From the NCBI GenBank assembly GCA_002722135.1, contig PBKJ01000008.1:30290-94289 (forward strand): DNA of 64,000 nt, read 5' to 3'. The notes below the pieces were generated by a model. It was not told the origin of the DNA. It did not search any database and was given only the letters and a program-made list of their open reading frames with translations. Positions 16,853 to 58,982 of this stretch are shown here, piece by piece; positions within the stretch are counted from its first letter, which is position 1; every line of letters begins with the position of its first letter. The stretch is from Methanobacteriota archaeon (GTDB taxonomy: Archaea > Thermoplasmatota > Poseidoniia > Poseidoniales > Poseidoniaceae). The position numbers and the translations under genes are program-made.

Positions 16853-16924
16853 TGCGGATAGCGGGAGTCGAACCCACGACATAAGGTTGGAAACCTCAGA
16901 TGATAACCACTTCACCATATCCGC
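16853..16924 (-). tRNA. tRNA-Gly (TCC)
   Basis: GCGGATA acceptor pairs with TATCCGC+A; anticodon arm TGAGG-TT-TCC-AA-CCTTA; T arm GTGGG-TTCGACT-CCCGC; no intron; CCA not fully encoded. Confidence 0.95.
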
Positions 16925-55243: not shown

Positions 55244-57622
55244 ATGGCAACTTCACGCATCCGCAGCGGGTATCAACGCAGGATCCTCGACGAACTGCTC
55301 GATGGGCCTGCAACCGTGACGGCGCTCGCGGCACGGTTGAGCCTCGCAACGTCGCACACGTCCTCCACCCTCCGCACCTTGCGGCAGCAAGGACTCGTCA
55401 CGCGCGATGAGCGTGAGGGTGTACGTGGAGCACCCCACCACCTCAGCCCCCAGGGGCTGATTCGCCTGCAAGAGGACGCCCTTGAGCGCCTGCGGGACGC
55501 CACGAGGGCATCGCGACCAGAAGGGACCAACGTCCTCTTGACGCGCGATGGGCCTCTGGTGGTGCTTGCTTACGGAGAACGCATCCCTTCAGACCTGATT
55601 TGGTTGCCTCCACGCCGCTTGAGCGTCGAGGGGGCGCCACTGCTGTCTTCCAGTGGAAACGCACGGGGGGGCGCGTGGTGTGCGGTGCGTAGCGCACCGC
55701 AGTGGTTCGACCTGGACACCTTGGAGCCATGTGACCCGCCACCCCCAGAAATGCCCCTCAGCGACATTCGCACATGGACACAAGATGGGCGGAAGTTGGC
55801 TTTGGTTCGAGCCCGGGTGATGAGCGGGCAAGACCGATGGACGATGCCGCCGGGGACATGGTTCGAGACCGAAGGAGCAGACGAGAGCCCACCTGCGGCC
55901 CTGAACCGAAGTGGAGTGGACCTTGGCACGGTCCAAGGCACGGAGGTGCCTTGCAGGCCTTCAACACCCATCCTTGGGCAGGTTGGCGAGGCCTGGCGGC
56001 GTGAATCGTTGCTGGGTGGACAAAAAGGCCTGATCGTTCTACGGTCCTCCCGCCCAGACGCAATTGCAGAGCGTCCAGTGTCCCTGCTCCATCTTTGGAT
56101 GCGCCACAGGCACCCGCGTTTGCGAGGCGCCGAATTGGACCGCCGGACACAGAGGTTGCTCGAACGCCTGCGGGGCGACCGTCGCGGACGTCCGAGTGCT
56201 GTGGCTCACGCTGCGCTGGCGGCTTTTGGACCGAGCACGTGGGTCGAACACGAGACCACCTTCCACGAACTGGCCCGATCCAACGAGGAAGGGGCACGCG
56301 CGATCTGGGAATGGGCGCTTGAACATGCGAAGGGGGCCGTCCAGGGCGAATGGACCCTTGGCGCCACCCACAAGAAACTCCTCAAACGGGTTATCGCGGA
56401 CGGGCGATGCCAGCTTCTGCTCGCCGGTGATGCGCGCTTGCGTGAGCACAAACAAGGCACGTGGCTGGTGGACATCAAGGGCGAACGCTGGGTTCACCTG
56501 AACGAAGTCACGCGGCTCCGACTGACCAGAGATCATCAGCAGTCTCCAAGTCAAGCAATGTGGCAACAGCCCATACCGGCCTCGGCTGCCTCGTTGTTGG
56601 CACATGAACGCGCAGCAGTCGACGAGACTACTGCACGAAACACGACGGCCATGGAGCGAGAACTGAGACGCGCGCTTTCGGCGTGGCCTGATGGAGACGA
56701 CAATCTCGCAGACACGCTTGAGCACGAACACCCGCTTGCAGCATGGATTGCGTCAAGCGAGAAGGAACGCGGACGCCGGTGGCGCCGCATCGGTGATCGT
56801 GTCCCGGACGCATGGGTGGGCTTACACGCCCCACAGAACGCCTCGGATGAATGGCTGAGCGAGGCTGCGAATCGAGCAGCGTTTGAGGAACGGGAAGCGT
56901 ACGCGCTGGAACTCGCCCGTCGCTACGAACAGCAACCACGCCCTCGTCCCACAGCGCCTCTTCTTCAGCCTGTTGCGAGCACAGCGCGGTTGTTGACCTT
57001 GCGTGAAGGGCAGGTCCCTGACGCCTCCGACGTGACCACATGGACCGCCGACCCCTTGCATTTTTCAGCCGTGCTTCCAAGGGTATGGGATGCCCTCGAA
57101 CCTACGCCAACGGACCTCCCCAACGCACCACTGCTGACGTGGCATACATGGATCACTGCACCAAACGCACCCCCAAGCATCGACGCCATCATCAGGAGGT
57201 GTGAGGACCTCCCGTGCGAATGGTGGGCGCCTTGGTTACCGGAGTGGCTCCCCTACCTGCTTGCTTCGGCACGCGGGCGACGATGGTTGTCGGACTGCAA
57301 CATCGTGTGGCCCGTGGTGGTCGCCGCCATGGACAGCGATGGCCCTCCGGGCCTCGCTCCGCCAACACCAGCCTTGAGTTTCGAAGGGCGTGACCTTTCA
57401 GACGTGCATCTGGTCGAAGAAAGACAGAGCACAGCGGCCCTCTTTGATGTGGCTGAGGGCGTCATGGCCGCACAAGAAGGGCGACCAACGCCGGTTGGCC
57501 GAACCCACCCAGAGGCATGTTGGCTGGTCTCGCCCCCACACACATGGCCGACGTTCGTCGGTTTAGGCCTTCCAGACGGGCCTGTAGGGATGGCGTTGAG
57601 CAAGCGACGTCTTGATAGGTGA
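55244..57622 (+). CDS. Large protein with N-terminal winged helix-turn-helix and unknown C-terminal region
   Basis: RILDELLDGPATVTALAARLSLATSHTSSTLRTLRQQGLV; GGAG SD upstream. Confidence 0.75.
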   Translation: MATSRIRSGYQRRILDELLDGPATVTALAARLSLATSHTSSTLRTLRQQGLVTRDEREGVRGAPHHLSPQGLIRLQEDALERLRDATRASRPEGTNVLLTRDGPLVVLAYGERIPSDLIWLPPRRLSVEGAPLLSSSGNARGGAWCAVRSAPQWFDLDTLEPCDPPPPEMPLSDIRTWTQDGRKLALVRARVMSGQDRWTMPPGTWFETEGADESPPAALNRSGVDLGTVQGTEVPCRPSTPILGQVGEAWRRESLLGGQKGLIVLRSSRPDAIAERPVSLLHLWMRHRHPRLRGAELDRRTQRLLERLRGDRRGRPSAVAHAALAAFGPSTWVEHETTFHELARSNEEGARAIWEWALEHAKGAVQGEWTLGATHKKLLKRVIADGRCQLLLAGDARLREHKQGTWLVDIKGERWVHLNEVTRLRLTRDHQQSPSQAMWQQPIPASAASLLAHERAAVDETTARNTTAMERELRRALSAWPDGDDNLADTLEHEHPLAAWIASSEKERGRRWRRIGDRVPDAWVGLHAPQNASDEWLSEAANRAAFEEREAYALELARRYEQQPRPRPTAPLLQPVASTARLLTLREGQVPDASDVTTWTADPLHFSAVLPRVWDALEPTPTDLPNAPLLTWHTWITAPNAPPSIDAIIRRCEDLPCEWWAPWLPEWLPYLLASARGRRWLSDCNIVWPVVVAAMDSDGPPGLAPPTPALSFEGRDLSDVHLVEERQSTAALFDVAEGVMAAQEGRPTPVGRTHPEACWLVSPPHTWPTFVGLGLPDGPVGMALSKRRLDR

Positions 57623-57640
57623 ACCGTCAGAGGACAAATC

Positions 57641-57902
57641 GCCACACCTGCAACATCGGGCCGAGCCACTGTGCAAACAGGCGATGACGTTCGATACCAA
57701 GGCCGTGGCCCGCTTCGAAGACCGCTGTGACCCTCGGGGATGATCAGCGGAGCAACAGCGGTACCGTGATCGGACATGGGTCCTCGGACGACGAACGGAT
57801 GACTCCGAGCCAACCAACCGATTGCACAGACAACCCCTGCACATGGGTCAGGCCCCGGAGCTGTGAGGTGATGATGCGGGCCGTTCGTGCGGGGGGACAG
57901 AC
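57641..57902 (+). ncRNA. Probable multi-hairpin box H/ACA guide RNA (four K-turn/K-loop hairpins)
   Basis: Four successive stem-pocket-stem hairpins with GA/GAUGA K-turns; hairpins 3 and 4 followed by ACA (57826, 57897) 16 and 14 nt from the upper stem; pyrimidine run follows. Confidence 0.7.
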
Positions 57903-57962
57903 CCCCCCTTTCTCACCGGGTGCCGCCGATGCCCTGAAGGGCTCTGCGGCGCGCCTCGATGC

Positions 57963-58982
57963 ATGACCTCCAACGGAGGGCACACCCGATGCCTCCTTGG
58001 TGGAACCTTTGACCGATTGCACCACGGCCACGAAGACCTCTTGCGTGCGGGATTGGAAGCTGCTTCCCATCTGGAGGTGCACGTGACCACAGACAGCATG
58101 GCCTTCGCCAAGGACCACCGCATCCAATCGATGGAGGACCGCATGGCCGCCGTTGAGGCAGCACTGCGGAGCGTACGGGAAACGGGGTGGAGCTTGCACA
58201 TGCTGGAGGACGCCTTCGGGCCCGCGCCGACGCACACCACCGCCGATGCGTTGGTGGTCAGTCCCGAAACCCGAACAGGGGGGGAGGCCATCAATCGAAA
58301 GCGCAGTGAATCAGGACTTGCGCCCCTCGTGCTCATCGAAGTTCCCCATCGACGAAACGCCGCGGGAACCATTCTTTCCTCGACCGCCATTCGAAACGGG
58401 AGCATGGACGTCACCGGTGAAGCGTGGATCAACCCGTCGTGGCGCACCCATGTCATGGCGATGAGCCCGGATGCAGAAGCGCATCTGAAAACCCCATCTG
58501 GAACGCCATACAAGGGGCCGGAGGCAACACCTGAAGTGGCCATGGCCGCTGTCTTGGACGACCTGACCTCGCTGGATGGCCCCCTCATCGCCGTAGGGGA
58601 CGTGACCGCTCGGGTCATGCTCGAACTTGACATGGTGCCGGACCTGGCCCTTATTGACGGCCAAACGAAACGGATGGCCCTGAACGAGGACGAAACCGTC
58701 GACACGTCTCACTTCCCGGTACGAATGACGGCGTCCTCACCAGCGGGTGTCCTGACCCCGAACTTGCTCGAGCAACTTGAACGGGCCCTCCATGCGGAGG
58801 AAGCGTGCGTGATGACGGTGGACGGAGAGGAGGACATGGCGCCGTTGTACCTGCACTTGCTTGCCCCGTTGGGGACCGTTATCGTGTTTGGCATGCCGGG
58901 CTGGGGCCTGATGGTGCAGCGCACCACCCTTGCGATGAAGGCGCGGTGCAGAACCATTCTCAACGCCTTTGAGGTGAAGTGA
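57963..58982 (+). CDS. coaD: Fused phosphopantetheine adenylyltransferase / DUF359 GTP-dependent dephospho-CoA kinase
   Basis: GGTFDRLHHGH, LVVSPET, LSSTAIR, then IAVGDVT, LIDGQTKR, VDGEEDM. Confidence 0.88.
   Translation: MTSNGGHTRCLLGGTFDRLHHGHEDLLRAGLEAASHLEVHVTTDSMAFAKDHRIQSMEDRMAAVEAALRSVRETGWSLHMLEDAFGPAPTHTTADALVVSPETRTGGEAINRKRSESGLAPLVLIEVPHRRNAAGTILSSTAIRNGSMDVTGEAWINPSWRTHVMAMSPDAEAHLKTPSGTPYKGPEATPEVAMAAVLDDLTSLDGPLIAVGDVTARVMLELDMVPDLALIDGQTKRMALNEDETVDTSHFPVRMTASSPAGVLTPNLLEQLERALHAEEACVMTVDGEEDMAPLYLHLLAPLGTVIVFGMPGWGLMVQRTTLAMKARCRTILNAFEVK

Follow-up and report, generated by a model that had tools for sequence, protein, structure and literature searches.

On the forward strand of the 64 000-nucleotide (nt) stretch analysed here (the window; contig PBKJ01000008.1), two plus-strand open reading frames (ORFs) are separated by an ORF-poor gap of 340 nt (57623–57962, +). 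Within it lie four back-to-back hairpins, A to D, each consisting of a lower stem, a pocket, an upper stem and a kink-turn (K-turn) or K-loop, which together span about 266 nt (57640/41–57905, +; Table 1). We conclude that the hairpins very probably form an independent gene for a box H/ACA guide small RNA (sRNA) of a marine group II archaeon (Ca. Poseidoniaceae), and that this RNA is a divergent, four-motif relative of the archaeal guide HgcG. An initial annotation, made without database searches, had proposed an unannotated four-hairpin K-turn H/ACA guide. That proposal is supported by covariation, by the ACA boxes after C and D, by complementarity to ribosomal RNA (rRNA), by genes for Cbf5, Nop10 and L7Ae, by contigs from RNA libraries and by a transitive homology to HgcG; what it had missed is the kinship of the RNA with a known family, from which it has diverged.

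Architecture and expression of the RNA locus

Folded alone, each hairpin adopts a lower stem, an internal loop and an upper stem at the positions originally proposed, and all four contain the K-turn words, with GA in the 5′ strand and GATGA in the 3′ strand. The GCAA loop ascribed to hairpin A exists in the window and is not kept in other genera. The ACA boxes after C and D had likewise been read correctly, and the lack of an ANA box in A and B had been overlooked. Both ACA boxes, the second separated from hairpin D by one G, read ACAGAC. An ANA located 14–16 nt from the pocket, 3′ of the lower stem, is found for C (15 or 16 nt) and D (14 nt) and for neither A nor B. The motifs of C and D are thus canonical, and those of A and B, which lack ANA and have 5-base-pair (bp) lower stems, are ‘H/ACA-like’; the linker between A and B is 0 nt long.

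Table 1. Coordinates of the hairpins and associated elements at the RNA locus (positions in the window)
Feature	Position	Strand	Details
BRE/TATA-like promoter element	57605–57618	+	cgacg..ttgatag; within 3′ end of upstream ORF (stop 57622); putative function
RNA extent by metatranscriptome contigs	57640–57905	+	About 266 nt; contigs cannot prove ends
Hairpin A (extra 5′ motif)	57641–57709	+	Lower stem 57641–45/57705–09; abuts hairpin B
Hairpin A pocket and K-turn		+	5′ guide gcaac 57650–54; 3′ guide acc 57696–98; GA 57663–64, GATGA 57683–87; no ANA box
Hairpin B (HgcG motif 1)	57710–57761	+	Lower stem 57710–14/57757–61
Hairpin B pocket and K-turn		+	5′ guide tcgaag 57715–20; 3′ guide gcaa 57752–55; GA 57729–30, GATGA 57739–43
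Hairpin B 3′ flank	57762–65	+	tacc, not an ANA box
Hairpin C (HgcG motif 2)	57766–57828	+	Stem-loop 57766–57825; lower stem 57766–73/57818–25; ACA box 57826–28
Hairpin C pocket and K-loop		+	5′ guide atgggt 57776–81; 3′ guide caacc 57811–15; GA 57790–91, GATGA 57798–802
Hairpin D (HgcG motif 3)	57834–57899	+	Stem-loop 57834–57895; lower stem 57834–42/57887–95; then G, ACA box 57897–99
Hairpin D pocket and K-turn		+	5′ guide gggtca 57845–50; 3′ guide gtt 57883–85; GA 57858–59, GATGA 57870–74
T-rich tract 3′ of last ACA	57909–57913	+	Possible archaeal terminator; putative function

The spacing between pocket and K-turn was read by hand. The distance from the pocket to the second G:A pair is ten layers in A and in B and nine layers plus one bulge in D; in C, the distance from the pocket to the K-loop is ten layers if the non-Watson–Crick layer 57782/57810 is counted. 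Productive Pyrococcus guides have a ‘GA stem’ of ten layers and 14–15 nt to the ACA (PMC4652768; here and below, statements on published work refer to the accessible parts of the papers cited), and the layer counts of the present hairpins fit this ten-layer rule. Binding of L7Ae to the K-turns and K-loops is predicted from sequence and structure.

The promoter-like box ends 22 nt 5′ of 57641, and the motif CGAYG-NN-TTSAWAW occurs at an equal distance in the relatives compared. It resembles an archaeal B recognition element (BRE) followed by a TATA box and may act as a promoter. T-rich stretches lie 3′ of the last ACA in most relatives.

Sequences from this locus are present in RNA libraries. 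When an 801-nt query was split into words, ten RNA-library runs from several studies each contained about one third of them, a share that corresponds to roughly the length of the RNA, and contigs were aligned in detail from four runs of four studies (X10, X3, X13 and X1). Three of these studies yielded contigs that coincide with the hairpin block over their whole length of 250–266 nt with 0 mismatches: 57640–57905 (266 nt) in X10, 57641–57897 in X3 and 57656–57905 in X13. The contig from X1 covers 57724–57899. No contig covers the flanks of the RNA, apart from one in run X1 that carries the downstream gene separately. This check of metatranscriptome coverage, suggested at the outset, provides good evidence that the RNA occurs in RNA libraries and a hint that it is a discrete species of about 266 nt. 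The genome also has genes for candidate partner proteins: Cbf5 (TIGR00425, 292.6 bits, over the cut-off), Nop10 (31 bits against a cut-off of 27.2) and two members of the L7Ae family, both over the curated cut-offs.

Conservation, distribution and kinship with HgcG

A DNA search of 60 relatives from three families of the order (f1, f2 and f3) found the block in 24 (23/36, 0/2 and 1/22, respectively), and the conserved segment, query positions 39–305, corresponds to about 57638–57904 of the window. An alignment of 25 sequences (A1) was used for RNAalifold and for counting pairs in an explicit structure. RNAalifold returned the four hairpins, with compensatory changes in 33 of 51 pairs. For the explicit structure (51 pairs in nine helices), 95.6% of the alignment cells hold standard pairs, compared with 83.2% in shuffled alignments, none of which (0/500) reached the observed value, and with only 36.0–44.6% when the partners were slid by 1–3 columns. 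Changes on both sides occur in 34 of the 51 pairs, against 5–18 in the slid controls. The lower stem of hairpin B was misaligned by MAFFT and was left out of the 51-pair count; it is built from differing complementary words according to genus, with a best helix averaging 6.7 bp (minimum 4; 29 loci), compared with 4.4 bp when the 5′ strand was shuffled. In each of the four hairpins, the GA and (G/A)TGA words show little or no variation, and the ACA stands directly 3′ of C in 25/25 sequences and, as N-ACA, after D in 24/25. Covariation had been named beforehand as a check on the proposed fold, and both the conservation of the four-hairpin structure and its compensatory changes are far beyond chance.

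Covariance models built from hairpins C and D (R1) and from A and B (R2) of the window RNA were used to survey the order Ca. Poseidoniales. R1 matches once per genome in 148 of 151 genomes (f1 73/74, f2 2/2, f3 72/74), and R2 matches 146 of the 151 (f1 74/74, f2 0/2, f3 71/74), abutting the R1 match; in a search of a small database, both f2 loci were also found to carry A and B just upstream. All four hairpins are present in 29/29 sampled loci from the three families. At one locus, L021 (genome G022), a 6-nt linker, catgtg, after hairpin A is fully complementary to cacatg in the 5′ pocket strand of A, and an alternative pairing is possible there; the sister locus L024 keeps this complementarity only partly.

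A scan of 151 genomes of the phylum gave R1 matches in 68 at E ≤ 0.01, including 43 of the 126 genomes outside the order, and 20 outside loci (L108–L127) were fetched for comparison. A single B-type hairpin lies directly upstream of C and D in 11 of the 20 by R2 (E ≤ 0.01), and a loose regular expression finds one in 15, one of them doubtful; outside the order, this hairpin is followed by ACA or ATA. No A-type hairpin was found in the 20 loci, the lone regular-expression match (1/20) spanning the promoter and hairpin B and being judged spurious. By these comparisons, hairpin A is an added motif that, in the genomes sampled, only this order has. The homologues in other Thermoplasmatota comprise two or three hairpins, and at every locus an AT-rich TATA-like box precedes them.

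The RNA is connected to a known family through its relatives. Infernal searches of Rfam, recommended with the initial annotation, were null for the RNA locus of the window, and homology emerged only via relatives that match HgcG (RF00064; Pab40/Pf7/Afu4). Locus L109, from another order, is matched by R1 with 67.3 bits (E = 1.6e-15) and by HgcG with 92.7 bits, above the gathering score of 77. Among the nine loci searched, seven more match HgcG below the threshold, with E values from 1e-13 to 0.03 (L111 57.5 bits, L116 39.3, L108 36, L117 32.2, L113 31.4, L088 25.6 and L020 20.2), and one has no match. L020 belongs to the same family as the window and L088 is an order-mate; the window RNA and L001 have no HgcG match at E ≤ 10. 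In the Rfam alignment of the relatives, B, C and D correspond to HgcG motifs 1, 2 and 3, and hairpin A lines up with a 5′ flank to which the model assigns no structure. Since L109 is matched by both R1 and HgcG, and B to D correspond to motifs 1–3, the window RNA is a divergent homologue of the three-motif Pab40/Pf7/Afu4 RNAs with a fourth hairpin in front; it is a homologue by transitivity and not a member by the Rfam cut-off. Of six other-order loci put to Rfam, five scored below the HgcG gathering threshold (31–58 bits against 77), and the curated model therefore appears to miss much of Thermoplasmatota.

The likeness to HgcG (Pab40/Pho40/Pf7/Afu4; Thermococcales and Archaeoglobus) extends to the pocket words, which are the same or nearly so (cgaag...gcaa compared with GcGAgGa...GCGAc in the model, and also ggtcc...aacc and gggt.ag...gtt), to the K-turn or K-loop in every hairpin and to the terminal ACA. 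The two RNAs differ in that HgcG has three motifs, each followed by ANA, whereas the window RNA has four, with ACA only after the last two; three-hairpin relatives from other orders carry ACA or ATA after the B-type hairpin, whereas the hairpins of the window abut. The Pyrobaculum ‘H/ACA-like’ sRNAs (sR201–sR210) resemble A and B: they are K-turn hairpins with guide strands, their lower stem has 5–6 bp or is missing, and some carry a degenerate ANA or lack it altogether (PMC4652768). Each consists of one hairpin and comes from Crenarchaea, whereas here the ANA-less motifs lie inside a four-hairpin RNA with two canonical motifs at its end.

Predicted targets in 23S rRNA

In the mechanism that we propose, L7Ae would bind the K-turn or K-loop of each hairpin, Cbf5–Nop10 (with Gar1, if present) would dock onto the hairpin, the two strands of the internal loop would base-pair with the 23S sequences that flank an unpaired U-N, and Cbf5 would isomerise that U to pseudouridine. 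The predicted targets, in E. coli numbering from an alignment with rrlH, are U1915 in the helix 69 loop for D, U2496 in the peptidyl-transferase ring for B, U2554 or U2555 in the A loop for C and U2606 in helix 93 for A. Target tests used the rRNA of relatives, the nearest 23S being that of the same-genus genome G012, which covers the 3′ part only (Rfam model positions 1423–2973). In two single-contig relatives the 16S and 23S genes are unlinked, lying at about 0.86 and 1.38 Mb in G023 and at about 1.25 and 0.87 Mb in G051.

For hairpin D, gtt and gggtca pair with gtaac[T]atgaccc (3 + 6 bp, more in relatives), and this site ranks top in all four 23S sequences scanned. For hairpin B, gcaa and tcgaag pair with cttgc[T]acttcga (4 + 6 bp), provided that 57721/57751 and 57722/57750 are paired in the upper stem. 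For hairpin C, caacc and atgggt pair with ggttg and gcccat around the T-T-C of the A loop (ggttg[T][T]cgccca; 5–6 + 6 bp). With the non-Watson–Crick layer 57782/57810 kept in the upper stem, the candidate target is U2554, with three unpaired bases and the ACA 15 nt away; in genera with A at 57810, canonical pairing points to U2555, with the ACA 16 nt away. The sites given for B and C are likewise the best-ranked ones. A Pab19 target with two extra unpaired residues was active (PMC2377435). For hairpin A, acc and gcaac pair with aggt[T]tgttgc, the same best site in all three guide/rRNA sets. Three of these assignments had been anticipated in the initial annotation: the helix 69 site of D holds as proposed; the B site holds with one paired base fewer than expected; and the A site recurs in the 23S of relatives with a different unpaired N and is weak by itself. 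The fourth, a possible 16S target for C, is not supported: C matches the 23S A loop best, and no 16S site ranks first in any of the three sets.

No difference at the four sites is seen among the nine 23S sequences of f1 and f3 that include domain V, and gcaac, N-acc, cgaag and gggtca are each found in 29/29 loci, as is gtt, with gcaa in about 27/29 by hand reading of the alignments. The pocket residues that are invariant across the order are those that pair with rRNA. Guides were also shuffled (300 trials per guide), counting the trials that reached the observed score against 16S and 23S. With the guides and rRNA of G021, the score was reached by 1 (B), 10 (C) and 0 (D) shuffles, and with those of G023 by 4, 7 and 2. 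Complementarity thus supports the predicted targets of B, C and D. It does not by itself support that of A, which is suggested by the invariant loop and the identity of the site and is the least certain of the four.

Other candidate targets were less convincing. E. coli 2586, corresponding to the alternative of Muller et al. for motif 2 of Afu4/Pf7, was considered for C; a hand reading gives 4 + 4 bp with two unpaired bases atop the 3′ strand. The A loop offers 11–12 bp, and 2586 is thus only a minor possibility. None of the 45 tRNA genes of the genome has a target-like word for A to D, and the word of hairpin A has 15 genomic matches, about the chance level by estimate.

Two offsets relate these positions to those of other organisms. 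For the P. abyssi offset we used what we take to be the E. coli positions of RluE, RluB and RluC. Pab35 covers the RluE, RluB and RluC positions (PMC2377435). Together, these indicate an offset of 92, by which P. abyssi 2588 would be E. coli 2496, the B target, and P. abyssi 2647 would be E. coli 2555, the C target. For yeast, we assume that Um2921 corresponds to E. coli Um2552, an offset of 369. The pseudouridines of yeast 25S include 2258 and 2260 in helix 69 as well as 2865, 2923 and 2975 (PMC8307265), of which the last three would then correspond to E. coli 2496, 2554 and 2606.

Pab40 motif 1 guides P. abyssi 23S 2588 and is active in vitro, and motif 3 guides 2016 in helix 69 (PMC2377435); these map to the sites predicted for B and D. 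Motif 2 differs: that of Pab40 acts elsewhere, at P. abyssi 1932, and the target of the Afu4/Pf7 motif is disputed between 2647, the position first proposed, and 2678 (PMC2377435). The H. volcanii guide sR-h45 is likewise a multi-hairpin RNA with one hairpin serving the helix 69 loop (H. volcanii 1940 and 1942), and the G:A pairs of its K-turn are needed for activity (PMC7075261). It differs from the window RNA in the number of its hairpins, which is two, and in its 56-nt linker and H box. In the pocket for helix 69, sR-h45 keeps UNUN unpaired, and two pseudouridines are made there, whereas here A57850 can pair with U1917, so that only U1915 is predicted for hairpin D.

Weighing of alternatives and significance

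Several observations weigh against an H/ACA guide of four active hairpins. The folding energy of the whole gap is unexceptional (z = −0.43 on the plus strand and −0.92 on the minus strand), as are those of the single hairpins (z = −1.15 to −1.52, with 18–30 of 200 shuffles folding as well); because these energies are not beyond chance, covariation was used as evidence instead. Rfam gives no match in the RNA locus at gathering thresholds, and at E ≤ 10 only two weak minus-strand matches (M23 and GlsR24), set aside as chance. Gar1 has only a weak match in the genome, which is 92% complete (20.9 bits against a cut-off of 29.3), the contigs prove neither the ends nor the strand of the transcript, and the assembly of the window contains neither 16S nor 23S rRNA. 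Scored against the rRNA of G021, the short guides of the window itself are only marginal for B, C and D (19, 19 and 54 of 300 shuffles reaching the score). The C guides are altered on both strands in 8 of the 29 loci, all from f3 (aggtcc with actacc in seven and with accacc in one; L090, L091, L095, L097, L099, L100, L105 and L106); no convincing new 16S or 23S site was found for them in G047 and G048, where the A loop is unchanged, and they could reflect retargeting or tolerated mismatches. The remaining points concern hairpins A and B. ANA follows A in 0/25 sequences; after B, where the genus of the window has tac, atc or aat, it shows no conservation. The pairing of A with its site is only 3 + 5 bp, and the complementarity of A is at chance level (157 of 300 shuffles for the window guide with G021 rRNA, 176 for G021 and 73 for G023).

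It is because of the missing ANA that a narrower reading stays a live rival: an H/ACA sRNA in which only C and D, perhaps with B, act as guides, and A, and maybe B, are K-turn modules such as L7Ae-bound stabilisers or assembly or chaperone elements. The short lower stems and the chance-level complementarity of A agree with it, as does the finding that the ANA of the H box is needed for the activity of the 5′ stem-loop in the H. volcanii double guide sR-h45 (PMC7075261). On the other hand, gcaac and N-acc are invariant in 29/29 loci of three families while the surrounding stems vary, a pattern that is guide-like and not spacer-like; the best site of A is the same in three sets and by offset coincides with a yeast pseudouridine (PMC8307265); B corresponds to the motif of Pab40 that is active in vitro (PMC2377435); and ACA-less motifs work in Pyrobaculum, as do single stem-loop guides without ACA (PMC4652768, PMC7075261). 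On balance we regard this reading as unlikely. A cis-acting leader or attenuator of the downstream gene, in place of a trans-acting RNA, is far less probable still. The RNA does lie just upstream of a homologue of that gene, on the same strand, in 25/25 loci of the order, but outside the order such a homologue lies within about 400 nt of the C + D unit in 0/20 loci; moreover, the contigs end at 57897–57905, with the downstream gene on a contig of its own in X1, the ACA is followed by a T-rich tract, and both the match of the pockets to rRNA and the homology with HgcG speak against a leader. Least credible of all is a string of box C/D-type K-turn RNAs guiding 2′-O-methylation, or a chance structure in a GC-rich spacer. 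The GATGA of each hairpin resembles a C box and the folding energies are no better than those of shuffles, but the order of the K-turn strands (GA, then GATGA, inside the hairpin) is the one seen in H/ACA upper stems and differs from that of terminal C/D boxes, a C/D pair at the termini is missing, and chance is excluded by the covariation, the order-wide presence and the HgcG link.

Within the preferred reading of an H/ACA guide sRNA, the roles of A and B are a separate matter. With 5-bp lower stems and no ANA, they must, if active, act like the ACA-less ‘H/ACA-like’ motifs. We put forward tentatively, and with rather more doubt than confidence, that both are active guide modules without any ANA or ACA, joined head to tail with a 0-nt linker, that the RNA carries four ribonucleoproteins (RNPs) and that the family grew from two to three to four hairpins within one phylum. 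If so, a euryarchaeal-type Cbf5 would be placed at A and B only by the anchor of K-turn, L7Ae and Nop10 and by stacking on the neighbouring helix, four RNPs on one 266-nt RNA would modify sites in helix 69 and the peptidyl-transferase centre together, and the new hairpin would have taken over a site served by a separate guide RNA in other archaea.

The flanking genes are as follows. The upstream ORF (55244–57622, +) encodes 792 residues with a short N-terminal winged-helix match (ArsR/MarR/IclR-type, residues ∼10–56), and no Pfam family covers the remaining ∼730 residues. The downstream gene (57963–58982, +) encodes a cytidylyltransferase-like domain (PF01467, residues 11–145) fused to DUF359 (PF04019, residues 216–337). 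We take these to be the archaeal phosphopantetheine adenylyltransferase (PPAT) and dephospho-CoA kinase (DPCK) families, and the product would then be a fusion for two steps of CoA synthesis (PPAT-DPCK). The sole Rfam match at the gathering threshold in the window is a tRNA gene (16853–16924, −).

Marine group II archaea, which are abundant and uncultured, have essentially no annotated non-coding RNAs. The RNA described here is a core gene, of which about 97% of 151 sampled genomes of the order carry a single copy, and the curated Rfam model is blind to the copy in the window. Its four hairpins exceed the one to three stated for archaeal H/ACA RNAs (PMC7991803, PMC7075261, PMC2377435); word searches of the open-access literature, a weak negative, found neither a four-hairpin archaeal H/ACA guide nor any H/ACA RNA of Poseidoniales or marine group II. 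The three-motif HgcG family is known, and what is new is the added fourth motif together with two ANA-less internal motifs. The finding refines a known system and opens no long-standing question. The four predicted 23S pseudouridines would lie at functionally central sites, namely helix 69, the peptidyl-transferase ring, the A loop and helix 93, and the RNA offers a natural case of internal motifs without ANA, which bears on how Cbf5 is anchored and on the origin of multi-hairpin guides such as the two-hairpin snoRNAs of eukaryotes.

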